Part shown: positions 4,252-58,421 of the stretch, one piece after another
How the letters are laid out: each line of letters begins with the position of its first letter
Numbering within the stretch: position 1 is the stretch's first letter
Notes under the pieces: model-generated
Seen by the model: the letters and a program-made list of their open reading frames with translations, nothing else
What the model was told of the DNA's origin: nothing
The model's database searches: none
Translations under genes and position numbers: made by a program
Source of the DNA: an uncultured bacterium
Lineage (GTDB): Bacteria; CAIJMQ01
Length of the DNA: 64,000 nucleotides
Direction: 5' to 3'
NCBI GenBank assembly: GCA_903821905.1
Contig: CAIJMQ010000001.1
Span: 2,267-66,266 of the forward strand

Positions 4252-4349
4252 GCGCCGGGTTAGGTTATGAGGCGAACAATTGTTGTGCCGATGGAGTTTT
4301 AGTTTCTCATTCTTGCCTCAATATTCTATTTACCTTATAATCTTCTCAA

Positions 4350-5778: not shown

Positions 5779-5811
5779 TTAATAAAGTAAAAGAGGGAGG
5801 TTAAGTAATAT

Positions 5812-7386: not shown

Positions 7387-7442
7387 AGAAATATGATAAA
7401 ACTTAAACTTAACAATAAAAAACAATTTCATAGGAGGAAGAT

Positions 7443-9515: not shown

Positions 9516-9526
9516 GGATTATAACA

Positions 9527-10732: not shown

Positions 10733-10745
10733 TATTCAGTCCCTC

Positions 10746-10774
10746 TTGAGATTTTGGCGCAGTATAGATATAAT
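10746..10774 (+). promoter_or_regulatory. Sigma70-type promoter of the hydrogenase/MTHFR/hypF operon.
   Basis: TTGAGA (10746-10751), 17-nt spacer, TATAAT (10769-10774). The SD AAGGAG lies 6 nt upstream of the ATG at 10844. Confidence 0.5.
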
Positions 10775-10843
10775 TCCACTCTTCAAGGTAGCAAAATATG
10801 AATTTGGACTTCTCATTTAAGCCATAGTAATAAGGAGATAAAT

Positions 10844-11890
10844 ATGCGGTATGTGAGTTTGCAGAAGGACAAGTTACCCCAGTTCGTCAATTCTTTGCAA
10901 AAAAAGTATAAAGTTGTTGCTCCCGTGAAGAAAGAAAATCTGTTTGTATTTGCTACGATAGAAGACCCCGAAGAAGTAGAACTTGATTATATGCCTACAA
11001 TACTACCTCCCAAAAAATATTTCCTTCCGCAACACGAAAAATTAGGAAGTTTTGTGAAAGATAATGTTGCGATGGCGGATACCAATATTGATGTTGAGCC
11101 AACTGTTTTGTTTGGCGCGCATACCTGTGATATTGAGGGTATAGAATGTCTTGATATTGTTTTCCACGATACGCCTGCAGACCCTTATTTCGGAAGAAGG
11201 AAAAAATCTATCATTATCATAGGTTATGAGTGCATGAAACCGTGCGATGAATATTCTACGTGCGTTACTATGGATACGCTCAATCCCAGAGCCGGTTATG
11301 ACATTATGATTACGGATATCGGCGATAAATATATTCTATACATAAATTCACCCGAAGGTATGGGGATAATAGGGAAAAACCCGATTTTTGGGAAAGTTGA
11401 AAATGAACGTGATGTGAAGACGAAACTCTTGAAACTCAGGGAAGATAAAGTGAAAAATTTTAAAGTTCAGATTGATGCTGATTATAAGGAACTTAATAAA
11501 ATATTCGGCACTTCTTATAACAGTAAAACATGGCAAGATGTGGGGAAGAGATGTGTTTCCTGCGGCAATTGCACGGCTGTATGCCCTACGTGTTATTGCT
11601 TTGATATAAACGATGAAGTTAAGCTTGATATGAGTGGCGGGAAAAGGGAAAGAGTGTGGGATTCCTGCCAGCTTGATGAATTTGCAATGGTTACAGGCGG
11701 TGAGAATTTCCGTAAAGAACGTTCTTCAAGACAACGGCACCGATATTACAGGAAATTTGATTATTCCGTAAAAAAATACAGCAAGTTTTTCTGTGTAGGA
11801 TGTGGAAGATGTACCCGCACTTGTATGGCTGATATTAGTTTGATTGAGACTGTAAATGAATTGGCAAAGGAGCATAAAAATGCAAAGTAA
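10844..11890 (+). CDS. hydB: Cytoplasmic [NiFe] hydrogenase (group 3b / sulfhydrogenase-type) beta subunit: Fe-S protein, HydB/AsrA-like.
   Basis: Two Cys clusters, CVSCGNCTAVCPTCYCF and CVGCGRCTRTC. It is the first gene of a beta-gamma-delta-alpha set. Confidence 0.8.
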   Translation: MRYVSLQKDKLPQFVNSLQKKYKVVAPVKKENLFVFATIEDPEEVELDYMPTILPPKKYFLPQHEKLGSFVKDNVAMADTNIDVEPTVLFGAHTCDIEGIECLDIVFHDTPADPYFGRRKKSIIIIGYECMKPCDEYSTCVTMDTLNPRAGYDIMITDIGDKYILYINSPEGMGIIGKNPIFGKVENERDVKTKLLKLREDKVKNFKVQIDADYKELNKIFGTSYNSKTWQDVGKRCVSCGNCTAVCPTCYCFDINDEVKLDMSGGKRERVWDSCQLDEFAMVTGGENFRKERSSRQRHRYYRKFDYSVKKYSKFFCVGCGRCTRTCMADISLIETVNELAKEHKNAK

Positions 11891-12743
11891 ACTATTGAAA
11901 AAAGAGATGACAATTCCTGCCGATTTTTTATATTCGCCGCGGGCTGCTACGATAGTTAAAACCAAACAAATGACGGCAAATGAGAAATTTTTTGAAATCA
12001 AATTTGATGACGGAGAACCCCTTGGGCATGAGCCGGGACAATTTATTCAACTTTCTATTTTCGGGATAGGTGAAGCTCCTGTTGGTATTTGTTCGTCTCC
12101 GACAAAAGAAGATAGAAGCACTTTTGAAGTTTGCGTGCGGAAAGTAGGGACATTTACCAATGCGTTACATAAACTTGATGTAGGCGATAAACTCGGCATC
12201 AGAGGTCCTTATGGAAGAGGGTTCCCGATTGATGAACTCAAAGGTAATGATGTTCTTATTGTTGCGGGAGGGCTTGGTATTGTTCCGCTTCGGTCTCTTA
12301 TAAATTTTATTATTGATAGAAGAAGGGATTTCGGTAATGTAATGATACTACTTGGTTGTAAAGGTCCCAAAGACAGGCTTTTCACCGATGATATGAAAGA
12401 ATGGGAACGCATGCTTAATATCAATTATGCATGTACTGTTGATAGAGCTGACCCTGATTGGAAAGGAAACGTAGGTGTAATTACTACTCTTATGCCGGGT
12501 GTTCATATTGATAAAAACAGAACATATGCCGTTGTTGTCGGTCCGCCCATTATGTATAAATTTGTAATAGCTGAACTTCTCAAGAAAGGTCTGTCTGAAA
12601 ACCAGATAATCCTTTCCTTGGAACGCCGGATGAAATGCGGTCTCGGCAAATGCGGGCATTGCCAGATAAATAGTGTATATGTATGCAAAGATGGTCCAAC
12701 ATTTACCTATGCTGAATTAAAAGGATTGGGGGAGGCGTTATGA
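11880..12743 (+). CDS. hydG: Hydrogenase gamma subunit: FAD/NAD(P)-binding oxidoreductase with a C-terminal 2Fe-2S site (HydG/AsrB/PyrK-like).
   Basis: Ferredoxin-reductase-like fold motifs and the C-terminal CGLGKCGHCQ. I choose the start ATG at 11880, which is preceded by AAGGAG. The ORF-track start at 11856 lacks an SD. Confidence 0.8.
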   Translation: MQSKLLKKEMTIPADFLYSPRAATIVKTKQMTANEKFFEIKFDDGEPLGHEPGQFIQLSIFGIGEAPVGICSSPTKEDRSTFEVCVRKVGTFTNALHKLDVGDKLGIRGPYGRGFPIDELKGNDVLIVAGGLGIVPLRSLINFIIDRRRDFGNVMILLGCKGPKDRLFTDDMKEWERMLNINYACTVDRADPDWKGNVGVITTLMPGVHIDKNRTYAVVVGPPIMYKFVIAELLKKGLSENQIILSLERRMKCGLGKCGHCQINSVYVCKDGPTFTYAELKGLGEAL

Positions 12744-13516
12744 GCCAGAGTAAAAACAAAAAAGTGCGCATTGCTTTATTTGATTTTGCCGATTGCGAAG
12801 GTTGCCAGCTCCAAGTTACTTATCTTAATGACCAGTTGGTTGGACTTTTGGAACACTGTGAAATAGTGAATTTTAGAGAGGCAATTTCAGAAAGAAGCGA
12901 TGATTATGATATAGCCCTTGTTGAAGGTTCAATTACAAGAAAACACGATGAAGAACGCGTCAAAAAAATACGCGAGAATGCAAAGATACTGATTGCTTAT
13001 GGTTCATGTGCTTGTATAGGCGGAGTGAACGGTTTAAGGAAAAAATTCACTCAAGAAGAAGCAAAAGATATAGTTTATAAAGGCAGGGAATTTCCCATTG
13101 ATGTAGGAGAACCAAGACCGGTTCACGAAGTCGTTAAAGTTGATTATTTTATATACGGTTGTCCTACTAATAATGAAGAAACAATAAAAGCACTGAAATC
13201 AATTCTTATCGGCAAAGGTTATACTCCGCCCAGATATCCTGTTTGTGTCGAATGTAAACTAAAAGAAAACGTCTGCTTGTTTGAAAAAGGTCAGGTTTGT
13301 CTGGGACCGGTGACAAGGGGCGGTTGCGGCGCTTGGTGTACGAGTTATGGAAATACTTGTTACGGATGCAGAGGACTTCTTGATAAACCCGCGCAAGAGG
13401 GACAGATGGATATATTAAAGAAAAACGGATATACACTGGAAGAACTAAAGCAAAAATTCGAAACTTATAATTTATGCAGAATGATGGGAGAGCAAAATGC
13501 AACAGAAAAATCTTAA
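12740..13516 (+). CDS. hydD: [NiFe] hydrogenase small (delta) subunit.
   Basis: N-terminal FDFADCEGCQ small-subunit proximal-cluster motif plus further Cys ligands. The start overlaps the stop of the upstream gene (ATGA). Confidence 0.85.
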   Translation: MSQSKNKKVRIALFDFADCEGCQLQVTYLNDQLVGLLEHCEIVNFREAISERSDDYDIALVEGSITRKHDEERVKKIRENAKILIAYGSCACIGGVNGLRKKFTQEEAKDIVYKGREFPIDVGEPRPVHEVVKVDYFIYGCPTNNEETIKALKSILIGKGYTPPRYPVCVECKLKENVCLFEKGQVCLGPVTRGGCGAWCTSYGNTCYGCRGLLDKPAQEGQMDILKKNGYTLEELKQKFETYNLCRMMGEQNATEKS

Positions 13517-14831
13517 TATAAATGTTGATTACTTGACCCGGGTTGAAGGACACGGGGATATCGTAATCAATGTTAAGGAAGGTAAGCTCGAGAAATGTGA
13601 GCTTCAGGTAATAGAAGCTCCCCGGTTTTTCGAGGCTATGCTGAGAGGCAGGTCTATATTTGAAGCACAGCATATTACTTCCAGAATTTGCGGAATATGT
13701 TCAACGGGACACAGCCTTGCTTCGATAAAAGCTTCTGAAGATGCAGCCGGTTTTACACCTACGCAACAAACTGTTCTACTTCGGAAACTGCTCCTTCATT
13801 ATGAAACTCTTGACAGCCATCTTTTACACGCGGCTTTTCTTGTGGCGCCGGATGCTTTGGGTGTGCCCAGTGTTCTTCCGCTTTTAACTACTCATAAAGC
13901 TCTTGTTCTCATGGTATTGGGTATGAAGAAAGATTATAGCGACCTTTGCGATATTCTTGCGGGAAGACATACTCATCCCATTACAGTATGTCCGCGCGGA
14001 TTTACTAAGCTTCCCACGAAAAAAGAACTCCAGAAAACAAAAGATATTCTTACCCAGCATGTAGCAAAACTTAACAAGATTGTAGACCTCTTTACGACAT
14101 TAAAATTGCCAAACTTTGAGAGAGCGACAGAATACGTGGCATTGACCCATCCCGAAGAATATGCATTTTTAGACGGTAATATTACTACCACGGATATGAG
14201 GGATTCCGTTATTCATCCCCACGATTATAAAGAAGTTATTCATGAGTTTCATGTTGCTCACAGCACATCAAAACATTCTAAAAATAAAAGAGATTCATAT
14301 ATGGTAGGTGCTTTGGCAAGGATTAATATCAACTTTAATAAACTAAACAAGCAGGCAAAATCCGTTGCAAGTGCGCTGAATTTTAAAACTCCTTCGTATA
14401 ATCCATATATGAATACGATTGCCCAGGTTATTGAATCGGCTCATTGTTTATACGATGCAATAGCAATCGTTGACCATTTCTTGAAGATAGGCATTAACTA
14501 TGATGAAGTTGTCAGTTCCTGGCCGAAAGTTGACGAATGGCCTACATTTAAATGCAAAGCAAGAAAAGGCGTGGGTGCTGTTGAAGTCCCGCGCGGGATT
14601 CTTATACACGAATATACCATCAATGAGCGCGGTATAATAAAAAATGCCAATTGCTGTATTCCGACTAACCAGAACCTTGCCAATATCGACCTTGATATGA
14701 AGAAACTCGTTCCCGAGGTATTGGATAAATCAAAAGAAGAGATTACACTACTTGCCGAAATGTTAGTTAGAGCATATGACCCGTGCATTTCATGTTCGTG
14801 CCATATGCTTGATGTGAAATTTATCGAGTAA
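13497..14831 (+). CDS. hydA: [NiFe] hydrogenase large (alpha) catalytic subunit.
   Basis: N-terminal RVEGHG and the L1 motif RICGICSTGH. The C-terminal L2 motif DPCISCSCH binds Ni-Fe and marks the protease cleavage site. Confidence 0.9.
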   Translation: MQQKNLNINVDYLTRVEGHGDIVINVKEGKLEKCELQVIEAPRFFEAMLRGRSIFEAQHITSRICGICSTGHSLASIKASEDAAGFTPTQQTVLLRKLLLHYETLDSHLLHAAFLVAPDALGVPSVLPLLTTHKALVLMVLGMKKDYSDLCDILAGRHTHPITVCPRGFTKLPTKKELQKTKDILTQHVAKLNKIVDLFTTLKLPNFERATEYVALTHPEEYAFLDGNITTTDMRDSVIHPHDYKEVIHEFHVAHSTSKHSKNKRDSYMVGALARININFNKLNKQAKSVASALNFKTPSYNPYMNTIAQVIESAHCLYDAIAIVDHFLKIGINYDEVVSSWPKVDEWPTFKCKARKGVGAVEVPRGILIHEYTINERGIIKNANCCIPTNQNLANIDLDMKKLVPEVLDKSKEEITLLAEMLVRAYDPCISCSCHMLDVKFIE

Positions 14832-14840
14832 TACCAATTA

Positions 14841-15302
14841 ATGGAGAAAACACTCGTCATAGGTGTAGGTTCTGTATTAAGAAGTGACGATGGTATAGGA
14901 ATAAGAGTAGTAGAAGAGCTTCAGAAGGAAAAATTCCCCTCCAAGGTTAAGTTCATAAGTGGCGATATCTCTGGTTTAGAGCTTATAAAATATTTCTCCG
15001 ACTTTGCGCGGGTTATTATTATTGATGCTGCGGATATAAAAGAAAAACCCGGCACGATTAAGTCATTCAAGGGTTCCCAGCTAAAGAAAAGCGATTTCTC
15101 CGATATTGTTTCAACTCATGGCATGAATCTTATTGAGACATTAACACTTGCGGAAAAGTTGGATATCTCACCTGAAATAGTTATTGTAGGCATCCAGCCG
15201 AAAGATACTTCATTCAAATTAGAACTGACACTTGAAATAGAAGAGAAAATACCTTATATAGTAAATGCAGTTAAAAAGATAATTAATAGAGATAAAAAAT
15301 GA
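14841..15302 (+). CDS. Hydrogenase maturation endopeptidase (HycI/HoxW/HyaD family).
   Basis: The IGVGSVLRSDDGIGIRVV motif, a size of 153 aa, and its position directly downstream of the large subunit. Confidence 0.85.
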   Translation: MEKTLVIGVGSVLRSDDGIGIRVVEELQKEKFPSKVKFISGDISGLELIKYFSDFARVIIIDAADIKEKPGTIKSFKGSQLKKSDFSDIVSTHGMNLIETLTLAEKLDISPEIVIVGIQPKDTSFKLELTLEIEEKIPYIVNAVKKIINRDKK

Positions 15303-17296
15303 TTGATTATACGAAATACCGGCTGAAATCAAAGGAAGAACTCGCGGAGATTCTCTCTGGAATTTCCAGTATTTTTGTTGTCTTGTGCCTGAAATGTTAC
15401 AAAGAATTTCAGGTTGTAGAAGAGCCGGAATGTCCTGATTTCCAGGAATATCTAAAAGAGAAAGGGATAAAATTTGCAGGATGTATTGACCAAGATTTTT
15501 TATGCAATAACTATCTCACAGATAAAAAATTGGCTGAAGTTAAGCTCAATGATGCGGAAGCGGTCGGCGTTATATCCTGCGGTTTAGGAATTCAGAATAT
15601 TGCTAAATCATTGGAAGGTAAAAGAGTTATAGCTCTTGCTGATTCAATTCCCCATGGCGGAAATGCAACAAGTATTGTAGGCTATCATGGAATAGCACTT
15701 GAGAGCGAGAAATGTTCTGCCTGCGGAGAGTGCTATTTAAATATTACAGGCGGGATTTGTCCTATAGTAGATTGTGCCAAGAGTCTTTTAAATGGTCCCT
15801 GCGGCGGAGCTAAAAACGGCAAATGCGAAGTAAATTCCAACCTTGACTGTGCATGGGAAAAAATATACGAACGGCTTAAAAACCAAAACAGAGAATTCAT
15901 AAGTAAAAAGATAGAAATAAGGGATTATGGCAAATTCAAATTTGATAATAAAAAGAAGCTTTCTCTTTCTAATCAGGCACGAAGAAAAGAAAGTTTTTAC
16001 GGCGGTGTATATCCCTTAGATAAGAAAGAAGATACCCAAAATCTTGCCATTGCAGTTTTTCCTGAACCCCAACAAGTAACTATATTCCTCTCTCAACATA
16101 CAGGTTCTCCGGCTGAAGCTTTAGTAAAAGTCGGCGATACGGTAAAAATTGGGCAGAAAATAGCAAAAAGCACAGGACTGATATCTTCCTCGATTCATTC
16201 GAGTGTCAACGGTAAAGTTGTTTCTTTGAAAAAAAGAATTCATCCTTCCATATTAAAACCTCTCCCTGCGATAGTTATTGAAAACGATGGTTTGGATGAG
16301 TTTGATTCTTCAGTAAAACCTATTTTAAATTGGGAAAACGAGTCAAAAGAGTCATTGACACAGATATTGCAAGATAAAGGGATTGTCGGTTTAGGCGGTG
16401 CTATGTTTCCCACTCACGTTAAACTCTCTGCGCCGAAACCTGTTGATACTTTGATTATCAATGGCTGTGAATGTGAACCGTATCTGAGTGCAGATAACAG
16501 AGTGATGGTCGAGTATCCCGAACAAATAATGAAGGGTATTAGTGTTGCGAAAAAACTTCTCGGTGTGGAAAATGTTATTGTCGTAGTTGATGAGAATAAA
16601 CCTGAAGCGATTGAGAAACTTAAGAGTTTACCAAACATCAAAGTTGAAGTTCTGAAAACCAAGTATCCTCAAGGCGCAGAAAAGATATTAGTAAAGAAGT
16701 TGCTTAATAGGGAAGTTCCTGAAGCGGGTTTACCTTTTGATGTCGGGGTTGTAGTTTCCAATGTGAGCACAATTTTTGCAATCTATCAGGCAATCTTTGA
16801 AGGACTGCCTCTGATTCAAAGAGTGGTTACGGTTTCCGGTGACAGTATAGTGCGAAGCGGTAATTTTTTGATGAAAATAGGCACTTCCCTAAACGATATC
16901 GTCAAGTTCTGCTTTAAAGGAAATAAAGAAAAAATTTTTGAAGAATATCATATTAAAATGGGTGGTCCGATGATGGGTATAGACCAGATTAGTCTTGATT
17001 CAAGTGTTATCAAAGGTTCAACGGGATTCACTTTCCTGAAGAAAAACCCAGCTGAGCTTTCGGAAGAGCGCGCCTGTATAAAATGCGGTCGTTGTGTTGA
17101 AGTATGTCCTGTGGAACTTGAACCTCTGTATTATGCCTATTACGGACAGAAGAAAATGTGGAATGAAACTATCAAGTATAATGTTGCCAATTGTATAGAA
17201 TGCGGCGCATGCGAATATGTCTGTTCATCAAAAATAAGTCTTTTGAGTTTAATAAAAAAGGCAAAGAAAAATGCTCATAACAAAGTTAAAAAATAA
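15299..17296 (+). CDS. Fusion protein. The N-terminal domain is MetV-like and Cys-rich (MTHFR_C, PF12225-type). The C-terminal module is an RnfC-like NADH-binding, 2x[4Fe-4S] unit. It is the candidate electron-input subunit of an NADH-dependent methylene-THF reductase.
   Basis: The N-terminal 200 aa carry CGLGIQ...CSACGECYLNITGGICPIVDCAKSLLNGPCGGAKNGKCEV, which is near-identical in pattern to the next gene. The C-terminus carries GGAMFPTHVKL and INGCECEPYLSADNRVM (RnfC SLBB/51K-like) plus two CxxCGxCxxxCP ferredoxin motifs. The start overlaps the protease stop (ATGA). Confidence 0.7.
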   Translation: MIDYTKYRLKSKEELAEILSGISSIFVVLCLKCYKEFQVVEEPECPDFQEYLKEKGIKFAGCIDQDFLCNNYLTDKKLAEVKLNDAEAVGVISCGLGIQNIAKSLEGKRVIALADSIPHGGNATSIVGYHGIALESEKCSACGECYLNITGGICPIVDCAKSLLNGPCGGAKNGKCEVNSNLDCAWEKIYERLKNQNREFISKKIEIRDYGKFKFDNKKKLSLSNQARRKESFYGGVYPLDKKEDTQNLAIAVFPEPQQVTIFLSQHTGSPAEALVKVGDTVKIGQKIAKSTGLISSSIHSSVNGKVVSLKKRIHPSILKPLPAIVIENDGLDEFDSSVKPILNWENESKESLTQILQDKGIVGLGGAMFPTHVKLSAPKPVDTLIINGCECEPYLSADNRVMVEYPEQIMKGISVAKKLLGVENVIVVVDENKPEAIEKLKSLPNIKVEVLKTKYPQGAEKILVKKLLNREVPEAGLPFDVGVVVSNVSTIFAIYQAIFEGLPLIQRVVTVSGDSIVRSGNFLMKIGTSLNDIVKFCFKGNKEKIFEEYHIKMGGPMMGIDQISLDSSVIKGSTGFTFLKKNPAELSEERACIKCGRCVEVCPVELEPLYYAYYGQKKMWNETIKYNVANCIECGACEYVCSSKISLLSLIKKAKKNAHNKVKK

Positions 17297-17915
17297 GGAA
17301 GAACTCCTTGCGTCTTTTGAGAAAAAGCCGTTCATCATAAAATGTTTCGGCTGTAAGGAAGTATATTTTCCCGAAGACAAGATTGAAGAGTTACTAAAAG
17401 AAAACGAGAGCAAAATAACAGGAGTTGCCCGTTTGGATTATCTCTGCAGGGAAGAGTTCAGTAAACTTTATCTGGCAAAATACGGCCAGCAGATTAAAAA
17501 TTCCGGTGTAGTAATAGTTTTTTCCTGCGGAGTAGGTGTTCAAGTTATAGCGAAACTGTGTCCTGAAAAAGAAGTTCTTGCCGGCTGTGATACTTATTAT
17601 CTGGACGGCTTTCAGGGATTATCAGTCCAGGATTTAAACTGCGAACAATGCGGCGAATGTTATCTGAATTATACCGGCGGCATTTGTCCTATTACGGCTT
17701 GTTCCAAAGGTTTATTGAATGGTCAATGCGGCGGTGCTAAAAACGGCAAATGTGAAGTGAATGTAGAAATGGATTGTGGCTGGGAATTAATATATAAGAA
17801 ATTAAAAGGTCTGAAGCTTGAGAATGTAACAAAACAGTCAAAGGTTCTAATCAGAAACTATAAACGCATTCTTGATGAATTAGGGTATAATAAAGACCAT
17901 ATTAAAGAGGAATAA
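17271..17915 (+). CDS. metV: MetV-like small subunit of methylene-THF reductase (MTHFR_C domain, Cys-rich, Zn/Fe-S-like).
   Basis: CGVGVQ...CEQCGECYLNYTGGICPITACSKGLLNGQCGGAKNGKCEV. It is a paralogue of the N-terminal domain of the upstream fusion protein. Confidence 0.7.
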   Translation: MLITKLKNKEELLASFEKKPFIIKCFGCKEVYFPEDKIEELLKENESKITGVARLDYLCREEFSKLYLAKYGQQIKNSGVVIVFSCGVGVQVIAKLCPEKEVLAGCDTYYLDGFQGLSVQDLNCEQCGECYLNYTGGICPITACSKGLLNGQCGGAKNGKCEVNVEMDCGWELIYKKLKGLKLENVTKQSKVLIRNYKRILDELGYNKDHIKEE

Positions 17916-17916
17916 A

Positions 17917-18789
17917 ATGGATTTTGCTAAAAAAATACAAAGCGGACAATTTGTCATTACTTCGGAAATCGGTCCTCCTAAGGGTGTGGAAATAGAAGGA
18001 GCTTTAAAAGAAGCAGAAACTCTAAAAGGTAAGGTGGACGCTTTCAACGTTACAGATTTACAGAGTTCTGTAATGAAATTGGGCTCTCTTGCTACATGCC
18101 GTCTGCTTGTTGAAAGAGGGTTAGAACCGATATTCCAGATTACTTGCCGCGACAGAAACAGGTTGGCTTTACAATCGGATTTACTTTCTGCTTATGTGCT
18201 GGGAATAAGAAATGTTCTTGTTCTTACCGGTGACCATCCTGTTTTAGGCGACCATCCACAAGCAAAACCCGTATTTGACCTTGATTCTATAAGTTTACTG
18301 AAAGCGGCAACAGGTCTTATGGAAGGTAAAGATATGGTCGGCAATGACCTTGTTGGTAAACCGGAATTTTTGCTCGGTGCAGTTGTCAATCCGAGTGCAG
18401 ACCCTTTAGAACCTCAGATTATCAAGATGGAGAAAAAGATCCAAGCAGGTGCAAAATTTTTCCAGACTCAAGCAATATATGATGTAAAGAGTTTTGAAAA
18501 TTTCATGAACATAGTCAAAAAATTCAATGTTCCCATTCTTGGCGGAATAGTTCTTTTGAAATCCGCCGGTATGGCAAAATTCATGAACGAGAAAGTTGCA
18601 GGTATAAATGTTCCCGACAAATATATCGCGATGATGGCAGAGGCAAGTAAAGAAGATAGACCTAAAGTCAGTGTTCAAATAGCTGCAGAGCTGATAAAAG
18701 GCATGAAAGGTCTCTGTCAGGGAATACACATTATGCCTCTTGGCTGGGAGAAACATGTCCCGTCTGTTCTACAGGAATCTGGATTCTAG
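17917..18789 (+). CDS. metF: 5,10-methylenetetrahydrofolate reductase catalytic subunit (MetF, acetogen/clostridial type).
   Basis: 290 aa with TIM-barrel MTHFR motifs (ITCRDRNR, VLTGD). It starts 2 nt after the metV stop. Confidence 0.7.
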   Translation: MDFAKKIQSGQFVITSEIGPPKGVEIEGALKEAETLKGKVDAFNVTDLQSSVMKLGSLATCRLLVERGLEPIFQITCRDRNRLALQSDLLSAYVLGIRNVLVLTGDHPVLGDHPQAKPVFDLDSISLLKAATGLMEGKDMVGNDLVGKPEFLLGAVVNPSADPLEPQIIKMEKKIQAGAKFFQTQAIYDVKSFENFMNIVKKFNVPILGGIVLLKSAGMAKFMNEKVAGINVPDKYIAMMAEASKEDRPKVSVQIAAELIKGMKGLCQGIHIMPLGWEKHVPSVLQESGF

Positions 18790-18831
18790 AAATATACACC
18801 CCATATTTTCTGCATCGGTAACCTAAAAGCT

Positions 18832-21147
18832 ATGAAGAAAATCTCTCGGTTTAGAATAGAAATCAAAGGCAAGGTTCAGGGGGTAGGTTTTAGGCCCACT
18901 GTTTACAGATACGCTGTTCAAAGAAAGCTAATGGGGTGGGTGAGTAATAGCTCTACAGGTGTAATTATAGAGATTCAAGGGAAGAAAAATGATGTGGAGA
19001 GTTTTATTGCCATGTTAAAGAAATTTCCACCTTCCCGTGCAGAAATAACAGCTTTTCAAATCACCGAAATCAAACCCAAAAGAGAAACATCCTTCAAAGT
19101 TCTTTCAAGTATTATCGGAAAAGAGATGAAAACAAGAATATCTCCCGATATTGCCGTCTGTAAAGATTGTTTGAAAGAACTTTTTGATAAAAAAGATAGG
19201 CGCTATCTTTACCCTTTCACAAACTGCACTAACTGCGGACCGCGTTTTACCATCATAAAAAACATCCCTTACGACAGACCTAATACCACAATGAAAAGGT
19301 TCAAGATGTGTAAGTCCTGCCAGAGTGAATATGACAATCCTTCTAACCGCAGATTCCATGCTCAACCAAATGCTTGCAGCGTATGTGGTCCTAAGGTGTT
19401 ACTGATACAAAAAACCAAAGTTAAAAGTGCAGGGACAGAAGCTATAAAGAAAACTACTGAACTACTCAAAGAGGGGAGGATTGTTGCGATAAAAGGATTG
19501 GGAGGATTTCATCTTGCCTGTGATGCTCTGAATGATGAAACAGTTAAGACATTACGGAGCAGAAAATACAGAGAAGATAAACCATTTGCTCTTATGGCGA
19601 AAGATTTAAAAACAATAAAACAATATTGTGAGGTTTCACGGGAAGAAGAAAAACTTCTACTCTCCTGGAAATCTCCGATTGTTCTCCTAAAGAAAAAAGC
19701 GAATTCATCTATTTCAAAACATATAGCACCAAATAACAAATATCTCGGCTTTATGCTTCCGTATACTCCTTTACACCATTTATTATTTTCTAAACTCACG
19801 GTTCTTGTTATGACAAGTGGTAATATAAGCGATGAACCGATTGCGTACGATAACGATGAAGCGATGAAACGGCTTAAGAATATAGCTGACTATTTTCTTA
19901 TTCACAACCGCGATATTTATATCCGCTCTGATGATTCCGTTACAAGAATTTTCCCCCCTCCCAAAAAGGAATTTATTCTCCGTCGTTCCAAAGGTTATAT
20001 TCCTGACCCAATCCGCAATCCGAATTCCGCAATCCGCAATGTAATCCTTGCTTGCGGTGGACATTCCAAAAACACTTTTGCCATAGCTAAAGGCGAAGAA
20101 GTAATCCTAAGCCACCACATAGGAGATTTGGAAAATGTAGAGACATATAATTCCTTTGTAAACGGTATAGAACATTTCAAGAAATTACTTGAAATTAAAC
20201 CCAAAATTATTGCTCACGATTTACATCCTGAATATTTCTCTACTCAATATGCCAAGCAATTTGCTTCTCGCCACTCATCATTTACCACTGTTGCTGTTCA
20301 GCATCACCATGCACATATCGCTTCAGTTATGGCTGATAATCTATTGAATAATCGTAGAGTAATAGGTGTTGCTTTTGACGGAACAGGGCTTGGTTCTGAC
20401 GGGAATTTATGGGGAGGTGAATTCCTGATTGCTGATTATAAGGATTTCAAACGGTTCGCACATCTTAAATATATTCCTCTTCCCGGAGGAGAAAAGGCAA
20501 TAAAAGAACCGTGGAGAATAGCATTTAGTTATCTTTATTCCATATTCGGTGATGGACTCTGGAGGCTTGACATAAACTTTGTCAAAAAACTTGATAAGAA
20601 AAAGAGTAAAGTTTTAAAGGGAATGCTCGACAAAGGTATCAACACACCTCTCACTTCAAGCGTCGGTAGATTGTTTGATGCAGTCGCTTCCTTAATCGGT
20701 ATAAGAGATACGGTAAATTATGAGGGACAAGCGGCGATAGAATTGGAGATGGCAATTGAGGAAAGACAAAAGGTAAAAGGCAAAACGCAAAATTACGGAT
20801 ATACAATACAAAAAGAAAACAATATCTACATTATTAATCCGGATGGAATCATCAAAGGAATAGTGGAGGATTTAAAGCGTGGGTTATCCAAAGAAATTAT
20901 TTCTCTAAAGTTCCACAACACAATTGTTAAGCTGATTGTTAAGATGGCTAAGAAACTCAGAGAGGATACGGGATTAAAAGAAGTTGCTCTTGGTGGGGGT
21001 GTGTTCCAGAATATGTTTATTTTAACTGGTGCTTACAACGGACTTAAAAAAGTAGGATTTAGAGTGTATATCCACAAAAAAGTCCCGACAAATGACGGCG
21101 GTCTTTCATTAGGACAGGCGGTGATTGCAGCGCATCAGGATGATTGA
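18832..21147 (+). CDS. hypF: [NiFe] hydrogenase maturation carbamoyltransferase HypF.
   Basis: Acylphosphatase domain and two CxxC-x18-CxxC zinc-finger pairs (CKDC...CTNC; CKSC...CSVC). YrdC-like and Kae1/HypF carbamoyltransferase domains are present. 771 aa. Confidence 0.95.
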   Translation: MKKISRFRIEIKGKVQGVGFRPTVYRYAVQRKLMGWVSNSSTGVIIEIQGKKNDVESFIAMLKKFPPSRAEITAFQITEIKPKRETSFKVLSSIIGKEMKTRISPDIAVCKDCLKELFDKKDRRYLYPFTNCTNCGPRFTIIKNIPYDRPNTTMKRFKMCKSCQSEYDNPSNRRFHAQPNACSVCGPKVLLIQKTKVKSAGTEAIKKTTELLKEGRIVAIKGLGGFHLACDALNDETVKTLRSRKYREDKPFALMAKDLKTIKQYCEVSREEEKLLLSWKSPIVLLKKKANSSISKHIAPNNKYLGFMLPYTPLHHLLFSKLTVLVMTSGNISDEPIAYDNDEAMKRLKNIADYFLIHNRDIYIRSDDSVTRIFPPPKKEFILRRSKGYIPDPIRNPNSAIRNVILACGGHSKNTFAIAKGEEVILSHHIGDLENVETYNSFVNGIEHFKKLLEIKPKIIAHDLHPEYFSTQYAKQFASRHSSFTTVAVQHHHAHIASVMADNLLNNRRVIGVAFDGTGLGSDGNLWGGEFLIADYKDFKRFAHLKYIPLPGGEKAIKEPWRIAFSYLYSIFGDGLWRLDINFVKKLDKKKSKVLKGMLDKGINTPLTSSVGRLFDAVASLIGIRDTVNYEGQAAIELEMAIEERQKVKGKTQNYGYTIQKENNIYIINPDGIIKGIVEDLKRGLSKEIISLKFHNTIVKLIVKMAKKLREDTGLKEVALGGGVFQNMFILTGAYNGLKKVGFRVYIHKKVPTNDGGLSLGQAVIAAHQDD
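20009..20041 (+). repeat. Imperfect heptanucleotide tandem repeat (CAATCCG-like, about 4.5 units) inside hypF.
   Basis: Seen directly: CAATCCG CAATCCG AATTCCG CAATCCG CAATG. It encodes PIRNPNSAIRN. Confidence 0.6.
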
Positions 21148-21151
21148 TTGG

Positions 21152-21931
21152 TTAGAATTTTTTTCTTTCTTTATCAGGTAAAGCAACTTTAGCTGAATAT
21201 TGTTTCATATTGATAGTTTGCAAGTGATTCAAATGATGTTTTTCTCTTAAATAACTGATAATTTTATTTTCTTCTTTTCTATCAAAATTGCAATCGGCAA
21301 TCAATGTACCTTCTTTTTCCCTTAAGACTTCCGGATCACAGAGTCCTTTTGAAAGAGTCTGATACATGTATGATTGTTTGAAAGTTTGATAATTGGGAGA
21401 TAGTGTATTTACGCAAAGTTGTAATTTGTTTCGATAAGTTAAAATAGCACCATCTAACTCGTTAAAGTGGGAATAAAAAGCACTCTCCTTAAAATAATAA
21501 CAAGTCATCAAATCTGTCCTTTGCATACTAAATAAATCTTGTGTGCCGAATAGTGTTGCATGAAAACGCATGTTGAGTAACGAATCATTATGGCCTGACG
21601 AATGTAGCCAGATGATATGAAAGATGTTATGATTTGGATCATAATTCTTCATTTGTTCTACACCATCAGATATAATAGCGTATAACCTGTTTCTCGGACC
21701 AGTAGGTGTTTCATTCCCTACGATTTCCCCTCTTTTTAATGATTCTCTTTCTCGCTTTGTTTCTTCTAGATCATCACTTTTAACTTTTAGTTCAATAATA
21801 TATTTATCTTTTTCATGCCATGCATTTATATCAGGAGTTTTTACATCAGCCTGAGATGGAATCTTCTTCGCCTCAAGTCCAATTTCTTTTAATATTTCTA
21901 TAACAACGTTTTTTGAATAGTTATCTTTCAT
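21152..21931 (-). CDS. Hypothetical protein with an N-terminal PD-(D/E)xK-type nuclease-like motif (restriction-endonuclease/Hjc/NERD-like fold). The C-terminal 180 aa match no known family.
   Basis: Motif ...VKTPDINAWHEKDKYIIELKVK (PD ... ExK). I prefer the start at MKDNYSKN (21931) because the longer ORF-track start (22102) overlaps the upstream GNAT gene by 131 nt. The stop is 5 nt from the hypF stop, convergent. Confidence 0.45.
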   Translation of the reverse strand: MKDNYSKNVVIEILKEIGLEAKKIPSQADVKTPDINAWHEKDKYIIELKVKSDDLEETKRERESLKRGEIVGNETPTGPRNRLYAIISDGVEQMKNYDPNHNIFHIIWLHSSGHNDSLLNMRFHATLFGTQDLFSMQRTDLMTCYYFKESAFYSHFNELDGAILTYRNKLQLCVNTLSPNYQTFKQSYMYQTLSKGLCDPEVLREKEGTLIADCNFDRKEENKIISYLREKHHLNHLQTINMKQYSAKVALPDKERKKF

Positions 21932-21971
21932 AATTTTATTTTTATCTCTCCACTCTTTCTCTGTCAATTTA

Positions 21972-23416: not shown

Positions 23417-23420
23417 ATTA

Positions 23421-24356: not shown

Positions 24357-24380
24357 GATTTCTCCTTTTTTCTGCCGATT

Positions 24381-25301: not shown

Positions 25302-25514
25302 ATGTGTTTAGCGATACCAATGAAGGTGGTAAAAATAGAGGGCCCTAGTGGAATTGTTGAGCTTGGAGGAGTGAAGAGGAATATTAATCTTGAACTCCTT
25401 GATGGTGTTAGAGTTGGGGAATATGTAATAGTCCACGCAGGTTTTGCTATACAGAAGATAGATGATAAAGAAGCAGAAGAGACGATTGAGATTTTAAAAG
25501 AAATAGCTAAATGA
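25302..25514 (+). CDS. hypC: Hydrogenase maturation factor HypC.
   Basis: Starts with MCLAIP, the essential Cys2 signature of HypC/HybG. 70 aa. Confidence 0.95.
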   Translation: MCLAIPMKVVKIEGPSGIVELGGVKRNINLELLDGVRVGEYVIVHAGFAIQKIDDKEAEETIEILKEIAK

Positions 25515-26605
25515 AATACATTGACGAGTTTAGAAATCCGGAACTGACGAAGAAGCTTATTGCGAAGATAAGCGGGATGGTTTCGGATTATAAGAAAGAT
25601 ATAAAACTAATGGAGGTTTGCGGAACGCATACGGTAGCTATTTCACGTGCAGGGTTAAGAAAACTTTTTCCGCCAAACCTTAAACTGCTTTCGGGACCGG
25701 GGTGTCCTGTATGTGTAACGCCCAATAATTATCTTGACAGGGCGATTGCTTACTGCCGAAAAAACGATGTTATTGTGATTACTTTTGGCGATATGATGAA
25801 AGTTCCCGGCTCAACTTCTTCTTTGGAGAAGGAAAAGAGTAGGGGAGCAGATATTCGGGTTATTTATTCGCCCATTGATGCTTTGAAGATTGCGAATGAT
25901 AATCCGAAGAAGAAAATAATATTTCTCGGAGTAGGGTTTGAAACGACTTCTCCAACTATTGCTGCAACTATCAAAACTGCCGAAGCAGGGAATATTAAAA
26001 ACTTCCTTGTTCAGTCAGGGCATAAAGTTATCCCGCCGGCAATGGAAACACTTCTTGCAGATAAAGAAGTAAAAGTGGATGGCTTTATATGCCCCGGTCA
26101 CGTAAGCACGATTATTGGCTCTATTCCTTATGAGTTCATACCTAAAAAATATAATATTCCCTGTGTTATTGTGGGGTTCGAGCCGCTTGATGTAGTTGAG
26201 GGTGTCTACATGCTTGTTAAGCAGATTGTTGAGGGAGAAAAAGCAAGTGTCCAGGTTCAATACACCCGTTCGGTGAAAAGAGAAGGAAATCCCAAAGCTG
26301 TTGTGCTTATGGGAGAAGTGTTTGAACGAGAAAATTCCAACTGGCGGGGTTTAGGGATGATTTCCCAAAGCGGATTGAAGATAAGAAAAGAGTTCTCGGC
26401 TTTTGATGCTGTGAAGAATATAGAAGTTAAGGTAGAACCTACAAAAGAAAATAGACAGTGTATATGCGGTGAGGTTTTAAGGGGAGTAAAGAGCCCGCTG
26501 CAATGTAAACTCTTCGGGAAAATGTGCACTCCAGAAAATCCTATAGGTGCGTGTATGGTTTCTTCGGAAGGTACTTGTGCAGCATATTATAAGTATGGGG
26601 AGTAA
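25511..26605 (+). CDS. hypD: Hydrogenase maturation factor HypD.
   Basis: CGTHT, GPGCPVC and FETT motifs plus a C-terminal Cys-rich region. Its start overlaps the hypC stop (ATGA). Confidence 0.95.
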   Translation: MKYIDEFRNPELTKKLIAKISGMVSDYKKDIKLMEVCGTHTVAISRAGLRKLFPPNLKLLSGPGCPVCVTPNNYLDRAIAYCRKNDVIVITFGDMMKVPGSTSSLEKEKSRGADIRVIYSPIDALKIANDNPKKKIIFLGVGFETTSPTIAATIKTAEAGNIKNFLVQSGHKVIPPAMETLLADKEVKVDGFICPGHVSTIIGSIPYEFIPKKYNIPCVIVGFEPLDVVEGVYMLVKQIVEGEKASVQVQYTRSVKREGNPKAVVLMGEVFERENSNWRGLGMISQSGLKIRKEFSAFDAVKNIEVKVEPTKENRQCICGEVLRGVKSPLQCKLFGKMCTPENPIGACMVSSEGTCAAYYKYGE

Positions 26606-26701
26606 AGTCACAGTTCTTCTTTGACTTCTTTCTTTATATCTTATATATTTAGCTCTCAACAACTGAAATTAAAGGTAACATACAAACAAAAGGAGATGGT
26701 T

Positions 26702-27403
26702 ATGTTAAAACGAGTTTTTGCAGTAGCTTTAGTAGTAGGTATAGTTTCGTGCGGGATGGTATTTGCTCAAGATAAGGGGAAAGGGTTGAATACCGATTCC
26801 GAAAAATTGAGTTACACATTAGGAATGGATATCGGGAAATTTTTAAAAGATGTGCCCAGAGATATCGATTTCGAGATTTTCATCCAAGGTATTAAGGATA
26901 GTTTTAACGGAGATACGACTATTCTTACAGAGGAAGAGGCAACACAAATAAAACAGGAGTTTATTAAAGAAATACAGGCGGAAAATATGAAAAAGATGGA
27001 AGAAATAGCTGCAAAAAATAAAAAGGACGGTGAAACATTTCTTGCTGAAAACAAGAAGAAAGCAGGAGTTAAAACTACAAAAAGTGGTCTACAGTATGTA
27101 ATATTGAAAGAAGGAAATGGTCCGACTCCTAAGATAGATGATAAAGTCAAAGTGCACTACCGTGGCACTCTAATTGACGGAACAGAGTTTGATAGTTCTT
27201 ATGCACGCGGTGAACCGGTTACATTCCAATTGAATAGTGTAATTACCGGTTGGACTGAAGGATTACAGCTTATGAAAGTAGGAGGGAAATATAAATTGTT
27301 CGTTCCTTCGGAGCTTGGATATGGCGAACGTGGTGCTGGTACTCAAATCGGCCCGGATACTGTGCTAATATTTGAAGTAGAATTGTTAGGAATCGAGAAA
27401 TAA
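26702..27403 (+). CDS. FKBP-type peptidyl-prolyl cis-trans isomerase, Mip/FkpA-like, predicted lipoprotein.
   Basis: Signal peptide with lipobox IVSC. N-terminal dimerisation helix, then the FKBP domain (VHYRGTLIDGTEFDSS ... GWTEGLQLMKVGGKYKLFVPSELGYG). I place the start at the second ATG (26702) because an AGGAG SD lies 6 nt upstream of it. Confidence 0.85.
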   Translation: MLKRVFAVALVVGIVSCGMVFAQDKGKGLNTDSEKLSYTLGMDIGKFLKDVPRDIDFEIFIQGIKDSFNGDTTILTEEEATQIKQEFIKEIQAENMKKMEEIAAKNKKDGETFLAENKKKAGVKTTKSGLQYVILKEGNGPTPKIDDKVKVHYRGTLIDGTEFDSSYARGEPVTFQLNSVITGWTEGLQLMKVGGKYKLFVPSELGYGERGAGTQIGPDTVLIFEVELLGIEK

Positions 27404-27420
27404 GAAAATAATTAAAACAA

Positions 27421-27478
27421 GGGACGGTTCTATTTTAAAACAATAGCAAAATAGAACCGTCCCTTGTTATCCTTTTTA
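27421..27478 (+). terminator. Strong Rho-independent terminator after the FKBP gene.
   Basis: Perfect 16-bp inverted repeat GGGACGGTTCTATTTT / AAAATAGAACCGTCCC (27421-27436 and 27448-27463) followed by TTGTTATCCTTTTT. Confidence 0.7.
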
Positions 27479-27483
27479 ACCTT

Positions 27484-28155
27484 ATGAAAATTATTCAGCC
27501 AAGAGAAGGCGAAACGTTTGATATTGAGTTGGAAGAATCGCTACTTTCTAAGAATAGAGAGTTGGCTGATAATAATAGAAAAATCTTAGATGAAAATGAA
27601 ATCATTGCGATAGATGTTATGGGTTCTATCGGCTCAGGCAAGACATCTCTTATCAAGAATTTAATCAAAGGACTTAAAGCTGGACATAGAATTGGTGTAA
27701 TTGCCGGTGACCTTACTACTGAAATAGATGCGGAAAGGCTAAGAGAAGGAAGCACTCAAGTTTTGCAGGTTAATACGGGCAAAGAATGTCATCTGGATGC
27801 AAATCTTATAAAAAGAGCTTTAGAAAACATTAAACTGAAAGAAATTGATATATTGTTTATAGAGAATGTTGGTAATCTTATATGTCCTGCGGAATTTCCT
27901 CTAGGCGCTCATAAAAGATTAGTTGTCATTTCAGTTACAGAAGGCCCTTATATGGTTGTAAAACATCCATTTATATTCAGAGAAGCAGATATTGTTGTAA
28001 TCAATAAGATTGACCTTCAGGTTCAAATGGGTGTTTCTGCGGCTAAGCTAAAAGAAGATGTGTTAAAGATAAACAAAAAAGCCAAGGTTGTTCTTACGAA
28101 TTGTGTAACTGGAGAAGGTGTTAAAGAGATTATCAAATGCATGAACTTTCAGTAG
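27484..28155 (+). CDS. hypB: Hydrogenase nickel-incorporation GTPase HypB. It lacks a His-rich N-terminus.
   Basis: P-loop GSIGSGKTSLI, ENVGNLICP and NKIDL G-motifs. Confidence 0.9.
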   Translation: MKIIQPREGETFDIELEESLLSKNRELADNNRKILDENEIIAIDVMGSIGSGKTSLIKNLIKGLKAGHRIGVIAGDLTTEIDAERLREGSTQVLQVNTGKECHLDANLIKRALENIKLKEIDILFIENVGNLICPAEFPLGAHKRLVVISVTEGPYMVVKHPFIFREADIVVINKIDLQVQMGVSAAKLKEDVLKINKKAKVVLTNCVTGEGVKEIIKCMNFQ

Positions 28156-28505
28156 CAAATCAGATAGTTGAACGAGCTTTAGAAGTAGCCAAAGAAAAGA
28201 AAGCAAAAAAGATTAAAAGTATAGAACTTGCTGTGGGGGAATTAAGTTTGCTTGGAGAAGAACAGTTAAAGTTCTGGGTGAAAGAAATACTTAAGAGTAA
28301 AGAGATTGGTAAAGATGTACAGATAAAGGTAAATTCAGTTAAAGCGAAGATAAAATGTAAGAAATGCGGATATGAGGGGAATTTGAAGCCAGCCAATCAA
28401 GACCATTTCCAGCCCGTGTTTTTCTGCCCGGATTGCGGAGAAAGTGATATTCAAATAGAGGGAGGCAGAGATTGCGTAATAAAAAAGGTACAAGTACAAA
28501 TATAA
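28137..28505 (+). CDS. hypA: Hydrogenase nickel-insertion metallochaperone HypA.
   Basis: N-terminal MHELS and zinc-ribbon CKKCG...CPDCG. 122 aa. It overlaps hypB by 19 nt. Confidence 0.9.
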   Translation: MHELSVANQIVERALEVAKEKKAKKIKSIELAVGELSLLGEEQLKFWVKEILKSKEIGKDVQIKVNSVKAKIKCKKCGYEGNLKPANQDHFQPVFFCPDCGESDIQIEGGRDCVIKKVQVQI

Positions 28506-29515
28506 GACGGGTTCTTCTTGCTCACGGTGACGGCGGGAAGTTAATGCACCAGCTTATAGAAGAAGTCTTCAGAAAAAAATTCAATAACGAAATATTAAAT
28601 GAGCTGAATGATTCTGCGGTTATTAAGTCATTTCTTCCTAAAAATTCAAAGCTCTCTTTTACGACAGATTCTTATGTAGTAAATCCTCTCTTTTTCCCGG
28701 GCGGAGATATAGGAAAACTTGCAATATGCGGCACGATAAATGACTTGGCGGTTACAGGTGCAAAACCTTTATACATATCCTCTGCTTTTATAATCGAAGA
28801 AGGTTTGGAATATAAAATCTTAGAAAAAATAACCGATTCTATGGCGAGAATTGCCAGACAAGAGAATGTGAAGATTGTTACTGGTGATGTTAAAGTTGTA
28901 GAAAAGGGCAGTGCTGATAAGCTCTTTATCAATACTTCTGGTATAGGTGTCATAGGTAAAGACATTAATCTTTCCCAAAAAACAATAGTTGCAGGAGACA
29001 AAGTCATTGTAAGCGGTTCGATTGGTGAACACGGTTTAGCTATTTTGTCTGCAAGAGGTAACTTCGATTTTCAAAGCAAAACAAGAAGCGATTGCGCATC
29101 TTTGGCGGGTCTTATTGCACAAATGCTCAAAACTTCAAAAAACATAAAATTCATGCGCGACCCTACAAGAGGTGGTTTGGCTACTACATTAAACGAAATA
29201 GTTGGAGGAATGGATTTCGGGATTTCAATAAATGAAAAAGATGTCCCAATAAAAGAAGAAGTTAAAGCCATTTGTGAGATTCTTGGATTCGATCCTTTGT
29301 ATATGGCAAATGAGGGTAAAATTGTTGCGATTGTGTCCAATAAAGATGCTGATACGATATTGAAAGCTATGCGTAACCACCCATTAGGTAAGAATAGCCG
29401 GATCATAGGTGAAGTTATCAAAACTCCAAAGCAAAAAGTCATATCAAAAACAAAAATTGGTGGTACACGAATAATAGAAATGCTAACTTCTGCCCAGTTG
29501 CCGCGAATTTGTTGA
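28472..29515 (+). CDS. hypE: Hydrogenase maturation factor HypE (AIR-synthase-like carbamoyl dehydratase).
   Basis: LAHGDGG near the N-terminus, PurM-like fold motifs, and the invariant C-terminal PRIC. Confidence 0.9.
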   Translation: MRNKKGTSTNIRRVLLAHGDGGKLMHQLIEEVFRKKFNNEILNELNDSAVIKSFLPKNSKLSFTTDSYVVNPLFFPGGDIGKLAICGTINDLAVTGAKPLYISSAFIIEEGLEYKILEKITDSMARIARQENVKIVTGDVKVVEKGSADKLFINTSGIGVIGKDINLSQKTIVAGDKVIVSGSIGEHGLAILSARGNFDFQSKTRSDCASLAGLIAQMLKTSKNIKFMRDPTRGGLATTLNEIVGGMDFGISINEKDVPIKEEVKAICEILGFDPLYMANEGKIVAIVSNKDADTILKAMRNHPLGKNSRIIGEVIKTPKQKVISKTKIGGTRIIEMLTSAQLPRIC

Positions 29516-58392: not shown

Positions 58393-58421
58393 AGAATCTT
58401 CTTTTAAGCCGTGACAGGGAA

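Follow-up and report, generated by a model that had tools for sequence, protein, structure and literature searches.

What enzyme is encoded where a cysteine-rich domain of the MetV type occurs twice in succession, once fused to the N-terminus of an RnfC-like protein and once as a free protein? This arrangement is found on contig CAIJMQ010000001.1 of an uncultured bacterium, in a stretch of 64,000 nucleotides referred to here as the window. An earlier note on this DNA had pointed it out and proposed either a 5,10-methylene-tetrahydrofolate reductase (MTHFR) with unusual stoichiometry or a dedicated electron-entry module. We conclude that the three genes involved, rnfC2, metV and metF, very probably encode a type III NADH-dependent MTHFR of the Acetobacterium woodii kind. 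The features are as follows:

15299..17296, + strand: rnfC2, 665 amino acids, a MetV-like module and an RnfC core; predicted NADH-oxidising subunit of type III MTHFR
15299..15943, + strand: MetV-like N-terminal module of RnfC2, residues 1-215, recognised by PF12225, identity to free MetV and Cys conservation
15992..17236, + strand: RnfC core, residues 232-646, with RnfC_N barrel-sandwich, FMN/NADH-binding Complex1_51K, SLBB and two ferredoxin-type CxxCxxCxxxCP motifs
17271..17915, + strand: metV, the free 214-residue subunit, with a PF12225 match and a place in the clade of free MetVs in a neighbour-joining tree
17917..18789, + strand: metF, the 290-residue catalytic MTHFR subunit, PF02219 E 1.2e-37 with the full-length profile covered (Pfam)

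The rnfC2 and metV reading frames lie on the + strand where the earlier note had placed them, and all of the motifs it quoted are present in the translations. These include SCGLGIQ in RnfC2 and SCGVGVQ in free MetV, CSACGECYLNITGGICPIVDCAKSLLNGPCGGAKNGKCEV and CEQCGECYLNYTGGICPITACSKGLLNGQCGGAKNGKCEV in the RnfC2/MetV reading frames, GGAMFPTHVK and GCECEPYL in RnfC2, and likewise CIKCGRCVEVCP and CIECGACEYVCS. The end of rnfC2 and the start of metV overlap by 26 nucleotides, and metF starts 1 nucleotide past the metV stop codon. Pfam searches identified the MTHFR C-terminal/MetV domain PF12225 in RnfC2 (residues 124-205, E 5.8e-29, 100.1 bits) and in free MetV (residues 105-188, E 1.1e-27, 95.9 bits), each against a cutoff of 23. 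BLASTP aligned residues 8-212 of RnfC2 with residues 5-199 of MetV at 42% identity over 209 positions (E 4e-42). Since this alignment covers nearly the entire MetV, the similarity extends past the Cys-rich motif, and it is much stronger than chance would give. The double occurrence of the domain is thus confirmed; the two outcomes named in advance as fatal to it, an N-terminal domain that fails to score as an MTHFR C-terminal domain or two unrelated folds, are contradicted by the PF12225 and BLASTP results. The MetV-like part had been set at residues 1-200. It is present, but its extent is corrected to approximately residues 1-215, followed by a linker of about 15 residues and an RnfC core from about residue 232. 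Hallmarks of RnfC in the large protein were borne out by Pfam matches to RnfC_N (residues 232-331, 2.7e-29), Complex1_51K (358-497, 3.4e-46) and a Fer4 dicluster (589-646), while the SLBB match is weak (0.0017, under the Pfam cutoff). The ferredoxin-type motifs span C593-C603 and C632-C642.

Whether RnfC2 of A. woodii has the same architecture had been left undecided, and the published genome answers this. A. woodii RnfC2 (Awo_c09290), unlike RnfC1, has 220 additional residues at its N-terminus, with 59% similarity to MetV, and rnfC2 is co-transcribed with metV and metF (Poehlein 2012, PMC3315566). Our own comparison with Acetobacterium used A. paludosum and A. tundrae, and A. woodii by its published description (PMC3315566). 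The A. paludosum ortholog (locus L040, 9995-11959) aligns end to end with the window RnfC2 (residues 1-656), with 47% of positions identical and 66% positive. The order rnfC2, metV, metF is identical to that of the A. woodii type III genes (Awo_c09290-09310), a MetV-like N-terminal module of approximately 215-220 residues sits on a full RnfC core in both. The window also keeps every Cys needed to ligate six predicted [4Fe-4S] clusters, two each in the RnfC Fer4 domain, the MetV-like module and MetV, as well as the motifs for flavin mononucleotide (FMN) and NADH. Unlike Acetobacterium, the window host is not a Firmicute but an uncultured Omnitrophota/Ratteibacteria-like bacterium, and a 1-nucleotide gap takes the place of the rnfC2/metV overlap in Acetobacterium.

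The A. woodii enzyme has been purified. According to Öppinger 2021 (PMC8760232, citing Bertsch 2015), it contains RnfC2, MetV and MetF at 1:1:1; its FMN content is 2 and its Fe content about 24, as expected for six predicted [4Fe-4S] clusters. The same source describes reduction of methylene-tetrahydrofolate (methylene-THF) with NADH and no ferredoxin reduction, and presents RnfC2 as the NADH-oxidising entry module. The proposal of a dedicated electron-entry module agrees well with that role. The proposal of an unusual stoichiometry, and the novelty it implied, is not supported: the match is to a canonical type III MTHFR, reported at 1:1:1. A MetV fusion accompanied by a second MetV defines an enzyme class that is already known and characterised biochemically; this locus adds to it a predicted member from an uncultured Omnitrophota/Ratteibacteria-like bacterium.

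The RnfC core also raises the question of whether the 665-residue protein could be an RnfC/RsxC subunit of a membrane Rnf complex. It scores above the NCBIfam cutoffs for TIGR01945 rnfC (479 bits, cutoff 246, residues 232-661) and the NF003454 RsxC equivalog (414 bits, cutoff 345), homologues are named "electron transport complex subunit RsxC", and docking of RnfC2 onto Rnf was speculated by Poehlein 2012 (PMC3315566). RnfC of Rnf complexes is homologous to RnfC2 residues 232-658 and has a common FMN/NADH site and two [4Fe-4S] motifs. However, it lacks a MetV-like module, is encoded in rnfCDGEAB operons and attaches to the membrane complex, whereas the window protein carries the module and its gene is flanked by hycI and metV-metF. 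Ordinary RnfC genes (L061-L083) match the window protein only from about residue 230, without the MetV module, and on purification the homologue from A. woodii is a soluble subunit of an MTHFR (PMC8760232). Among approximately 50 of the 57 window reading frames of at least 150 residues (those up to 59.8 kb, less a few overlapping frames), there was no Pfam match to RnfD, RnfG, RnfE, RnfA or RnfB. With these scanned frames giving no match to a Rnf membrane subunit, with hycI and metV as neighbours and with the MetV module present, an Rnf subunit was rejected and is extremely improbable.

RnfC2 residues 232-658 match the RnfC of A. woodii as solved within the Rnf complex (PDB 9eri_C, E 3.8e-106), and GLGGAMFPTHVK and NGCECEPYL of RnfC2 align with the NADH-bound 9eri_C. 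Among 73 homologues, the Gly, Glu, Pro and Lys positions of the FMN/NADH motifs are invariant, with flanking residues at least 90% conserved, and all 8 Cys of the ferredoxin domain are invariant. An AlphaFold2 model of the full fusion built on these 73 homologues had a predicted local distance difference test (pLDDT) score of 78.7 and superposed on 9eri_C with a target-normalised TM-score of 0.89 and a root-mean-square deviation of 2.6 Å. The model is confident for the RnfC core and for an N-terminal alpha/beta subdomain (residues 1-118). A Foldseek search of the PDB with the model returned only RnfC, NqrA and NuoF-type matches, driven by the core. MetV had no homologues at E<0.1 among the sequences of solved structures, and the PDB copy searched thus held no template for the MetV module.

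To place the two MetV copies, 29 fused N-terminal modules were aligned with 28 free MetVs from the same loci and a neighbour-joining tree was built. Fused and free modules formed two pure clades, with a mean identity of 57% within each and 38% between them. Two such clean paralog clades indicate that the MetV duplication and fusion are old, and the fused module is, as predicted from this tree, an ancient paralog of MetV. A recent or window-specific duplication was rejected, as the fused and free modules are deep and reciprocally monophyletic across phyla. Judged by eye, the internal topologies of the two clades appear congruent: both group the window with L001, L005 with L006, L004 with L007 and L009, and the Firmicutes together. 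The rnfC2-metV-metF cassette would therefore have been inherited or transferred as one unit.

Twelve Cys are invariant in both paralogs, and those of the fused module also among the 73 proteins. They are C30, C33, C69, C94, C139, C142, C145, C154, C159, C168, C176 and C184 in RnfC2, and C25, C28, C59, C86, C124, C127, C130, C139, C144, C153, C161 and C169 in MetV. Eight of them fall in residues 139-184 of RnfC2 and eight in residues 124-169 of MetV; with the eight in residues 593-642 of RnfC2, all are invariant. The eight C-terminal Cys of each MetV module fit two predicted [4Fe-4S] clusters. Zinc has been reported for MetV (PMC9430772), and the four N-terminal Cys may correspond to it. Other positions separate the paralogs, including K32, F67 and H130 in the fused module versus G27, Y57 and Q115 in free MetV. 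MetV C106 (window 17586-17588) is Cys in 100% of the 28 free MetVs and in 17% of the 29 fused modules, and the window RnfC2 has Ala114 (15638-15640) at the equivalent position. These positions are candidates for what decides between docking to MetF and docking to the RnfC core.

The fused gene is widespread. A scan of one genome per GTDB species returned 80 loci, and at approximately 57 of these the match spans query residues 1/3 to 656/664. Among them are numerous Lachnospiraceae and Oscillospiraceae, along with Acetobacterium paludosum (L040), A. tundrae (L041), Blautia, Dehalococcoidales, Aerophobetes and Omnitrophota, and a free metV followed by metF comes after the fused gene wherever the contig is long enough. 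PF12225 and RnfC domains occur together in 119 of the 120 best matches from a collection of 5.8 billion proteins. Named relatives are Ca. Omnitrophica (80%) and Ca. Ratteibacteria (78%); the Omnitrophota/Ratteibacteria-like affiliation of the window host follows these named relatives and is uncertain. A Lachnospiraceae metagenome-assembled genome (MAG) carries a second, type II-like metV-metF pair (L014, 5961-7522) approximately 2.5 kb upstream of its rnfC2-metV-metF, with a different N-terminal Cys motif (GCGSC...), and two MTHFR types appear to co-occur in that genome. Homologues P0003, P0005, P0023, P0068, P0091 and others are publicly named "electron transport complex subunit RsxC/RnfC" because the fusions pass the TIGR01945 and NF003454 cutoffs. 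This naming is a systematic mis-annotation across candidate phyla: the MetV-RnfC fusions are MTHFR subunits and have no rnfDGEAB neighbours.

By homology, NADH would be oxidised at the FMN of the RnfC core. Electrons would then pass to the two ferredoxin-type [4Fe-4S] clusters at the C-terminus of RnfC2 (C593-C642), to the clusters of the eight-Cys motif in the fused MetV-like module, to those of free MetV and lastly to the MetF flavin, where methylene-THF would be converted to methyl-THF; the reverse direction would also be possible. Most plausibly, the NADH module docks onto MetV-MetF by way of the fused module, which would act as adaptor and wire. Type II enzymes (Clostridium ljungdahlii, Thermoanaerobacter kivui, Eubacterium callanderi) share with the window the core of MetV (Zn/FeS) and MetF (flavin), but they are without RnfC2, are unable to use NADH and are (MetVF)2 complexes, whereas the window adds an NADH module with its own MetV paralog. 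The fused module could mimic the second MetV of the type II enzyme. Conservation of the cofactor motifs and orthology are observed, while we infer how the clusters are ordered, which donor is used and that the fused module acts as the docking adaptor.

The trio does not stand alone in the window. It lies between hycI and hypF, within genes for a [NiFe] hydrogenase and its maturation (window 10844-21147), with further maturation genes downstream:

10746..10774, + strand: best sigma-70-like match, a candidate operon promoter 70 nucleotides upstream of hydB, 11/12 consensus match, weak
10844-11890, + strand: hydB, Fer4_22 (Pfam)
11856-12743, + strand: hydG, FAD_binding_6, NAD_binding_1 and DHODB_Fe-S (Pfam)
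12740-13516, + strand: hydD, Oxidored_q6 (Pfam)
13497-14831, + strand: hydA, NiFeSe_Hases (Pfam)
14841..15302, + strand: hycI-type hydrogenase maturation protease, PF01750 E 3.1e-24, TIGR00072 128.7 bits
18832..21147, + strand: hypF, [NiFe] hydrogenase maturation carbamoyltransferase, with Acylphosphatase, zf-HYPF, Sua5 and HypF_C (Pfam)
25302..29515, + strand: hypC-hypD-(FKBP)-hypB-hypA-hypE, with HypD, cobW/HypB and AIRS/HypE identified by Pfam

HypC (MCLAIP...) and HypA (122 residues) were assigned from their translations alone. The hydB-hydG-hydD-hydA genes overlap each other, the hycI TGA stop and the rnfC2 start share ATGA, and start and stop codons overlap along hydBGDA-hycI-rnfC2-metV-metF. 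The trio is predicted to be translationally coupled to hydBGDA-hycI. A promoter and terminator scan, whose sites were unenriched over shuffled sequence, gave no intergenic terminator-like site between hydB and hypF. The best NCBIfam matches of the hydrogenase subunits are sulfhydrogenase Hyd/Shy B, G, D and A, all under the equivalog cutoffs. The large subunit is most similar among PDB entries to the cytosolic NiFe hydrogenase of T. kodakarensis (5yxy_A, 1.7e-64), and the NiFe-binding CxxC pairs RICGICSTGH and DPCISCSCH are present in the hydA translation. The upstream enzyme is predicted to be a soluble [NiFe] hydrogenase of four subunits that resembles group 3b (sulfhydrogenase-type, NAD(P)-linked). 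Its beta-gamma-delta-alpha organisation and domain set fit those of group 3b sulfhydrogenases (Pyrococcus furiosus SHI/SHII, T. kodakarensis 5yxy); it differs from these in falling under the equivalog cutoffs and in being co-operonic with MTHFR genes.

The same neighbourhood recurs in close relatives. A [NiFe] hydrogenase and its protease adjoin rnfC2-metV in 8/8 examined genomes with an RnfC2 of at least 65% identity, and these hydrogenases are of different kinds:

Group 3b hydrogenase: window (group-3b-like), L084, L085, L091
Group 4 Mbh/Mrp membrane-bound hydrogenase: L001, L086, L090
Hybrid HydBG-like plus group 4 hydrogenase, downstream of rnfC2-metV, with no metF within 8 kb: L089

Compared with L001, an Omnitrophota MAG, the window shows 94% identity in MetF, 86% in MetV, 79% in RnfC2 and 72% in HypF, but only 30% in HycI. 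The window HypF is 72-76% identical to the HypF at the same position in L001 and L086. The low identity of HycI and the different hydrogenase classes, set against a block at 72-94%, indicate that the hydrogenase-protease cassette was exchanged ahead of a conserved rnfC2-metV-metF-hypF. Relatives at or below 61% identity have fchA-folD-rnfC2-metV-metF (L087, L092) or other contexts, and L004-L060 had no hydrogenase, HycI or HypF matches in flanks of up to 10 kb. For Acetobacterium L040, the sizes of the upstream reading frames (and sizes only) are consistent with the published fhs-fchA-folD-rnfC2-metV-metF (PMC3315566). Omnitrophota genomics papers report 3b or 4g hydrogenases and a Wood-Ljungdahl pathway for this phylum and leave a linkage to RnfC2/MTHFR unmentioned; a hydrogenase-rnfC2-metVF synteny was not found described in these or in acetogen MTHFR papers, within an incomplete coverage of the literature.

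How would hydrogenase and reductase work together? The trio is predicted to be co-transcribed with the group-3b-like NAD(P)-linked hydrogenase in the window lineage. A 3b hydrogenase would interconvert H2 and NAD(P)H, and RnfC2 would use NADH. Most likely, the operon as a whole uses a diffusible pyridine nucleotide to connect H2 with the Wood-Ljungdahl methyl branch. We favour this because the NADH/FMN motifs are kept in the hydrogenase-linked clade and the hydrogenase retains its own FAD/NAD subunit.

In the Omnitrophota/Ratteibacteria-like clade, the trio appears to be an integral part of the [NiFe] hydrogenase operon and to have stayed through an exchange between group 3b and group 4 Mbh/Mrp hydrogenases. 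A more far-reaching proposal, which we consider unlikely, is that hydrogenase and RnfC2-MetVF form a physical H2:methylene-THF oxidoreductase. RnfC2-MetV-MetF would have to dock onto the co-encoded hydrogenase and work without free NAD(P)H, for which the chances are as low or slightly lower. The adjacency in all eight close relatives, the overlap of the hycI stop with the rnfC2 start and the persistence of the adjacency through the cassette swap between the window and L001 all argue for docking, and Ech-MetVF and Rnf-RnfC2 docking have been suggested before (PMC8760232, PMC8578170, PMC3315566). Adjacency is nonetheless no demonstration of a complex, and the trio is possibly a mere passenger between hycI and the hyp genes. 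The conserved NADH/FMN motifs of RnfC2 and the FAD/NAD-binding gamma subunit of the 3b enzyme point to a soluble nucleotide intermediate instead, and the linkage is missing in the relatives at or below 61% identity.

The type IV MTHFR MetFV-HdrABC-MvhD of Moorella thermoacetica and Sporomusa ovata ties MetVF genetically to hydrogenase-related redox modules, as in the window, and these enzymes and the hypothesised Ech-MetVF or H2:methylene-THF chains have the reduction of methylene-THF by H2-derived electrons as a common theme. Unlike type IV, the window has no Hdr or MvhD genes, and the link is made by the RnfC2 NADH module and an entire hydrogenase, group-3b-like in the window and group 4 in sister genomes.

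Locus L089 suggests yet another role for the pair. Here (ENA ERZ27237542 k141_2527582, 8001-18001) rex and then a hybrid hydrogenase cluster come after a 65%-identical rnfC2-metV. The cluster combines HydB-like and HydG-like proteins with group 4 subunits, a Fer4_11 protein, a ferredoxin and HycI, and no metF was found in the 18-kb locus. RnfC2 and MetV could on this basis be a general NADH-linked, diaphorase-like hydrogenase accessory, with MetF as one of several possible partners. This is quite improbable, given that metF follows metV directly, or closely (L084, L091), in the window and six other clade members and that the free MetV is orthologous to the MetF-partnering MetVs of acetogens. 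The metF of L089 may also sit elsewhere in its genome.

Several points nevertheless weigh against a type III MTHFR coupled to H2 through a nucleotide. The identity to the characterised Acetobacterium type is just 47%, and for the window lineage we infer which donor supplies the electrons, in what stoichiometry the subunits assemble and in which direction the reaction runs. While Acetobacterium has fhs-fchA-folD upstream of the trio, the window has hydBGDA-hycI upstream and hypF downstream. The Cys-rich segment of the AlphaFold2 model (residues 118-215) is mostly at pLDDT <50, including all of 118-147, and is uninformative on cluster geometry and domain docking. Judging by L089, the RnfC2-MetV pair may serve in more than MTHFR. 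A nucleotide link is not guaranteed, since NADP(H) is often the preferred substrate of group 3b hydrogenases and RnfC2 of A. woodii works with NADH.

Between hypF and hypC, five minus-strand genes (21152-25244) split the hyp cluster. They encode a 316-residue protein without a Pfam match, a GNAT acetyltransferase, an alpha/beta hydrolase, a NAD-dependent epimerase and an SMP-30/gluconolactonase. The hyp genes of L086 are contiguous, and L084 has another insert, with a TIR-domain CAP12-like gene, an unannotated gene and a faint Nuc_deoxyrib_tr match. The site between hypF and hypC looks like a variable island.

Near the start of the window (106-1086) is a gene for RACo, the activator of the corrinoid Fe-S protein, with Raco_middle and RACo_C_ter domains; the listed reading frame is without the N-terminal Fer2 domain seen in the 535-residue homologue of L088. 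L084 has the same gene approximately 7 kb upstream of its hydrogenase. The RACo gene suggests that acs/CODH genes are located just upstream of the window. Several glycoside hydrolases (GH) are encoded on either side of the redox operon, at 2410-9515 and 57028-59789, including a GH5 cellulase, an alpha-L-arabinofuranosidase, a GH42 beta-galactosidase and a GH28 enzyme. L085 and L091 carry an arabinofuranosidase and a beta-galactosidase-type GH (GH42 in L085, GH2 in L091) directly upstream of hydB. The remaining genes of the window encode glycoside hydrolases, a peptide ABC transporter and housekeeping functions. The glycoside hydrolases agree with a fermenter of sugars in which reductant is disposed of or recycled by way of H2 and the methyl branch.

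The fusion of MetV to RnfC with a free MetV beside it is a textbook type III MTHFR and in itself settles no open question. Its recognition matters for annotation: hundreds of such fusions are automatically named RsxC/RnfC across candidate phyla, which can inflate Rnf calls and, where the metabolism of Omnitrophota, Aerophobetes, Dehalococcoidia and others is reconstructed, can keep an NADH-dependent MTHFR out of sight. The less ordinary part of the locus is not the fusion but the hydrogenase-embedded operon and the swap of its hydrogenase cassette. Research on acetogens has long asked how the reduction of methylene-THF is tied to energy conservation, and a clade with its MTHFR inside hydrogenase operons, including those of the ion-pumping Mbh/Mrp type, is a natural test case for hydrogenase-linked methylene-THF reduction. 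If the physical complex were true, it would be energy-conserving in the group 4 genomes and would be the first precedent from genomes for an Ech/Mbh-coupled methylene-THF reductase, which has been put forward as a hypothesis for acetogens.

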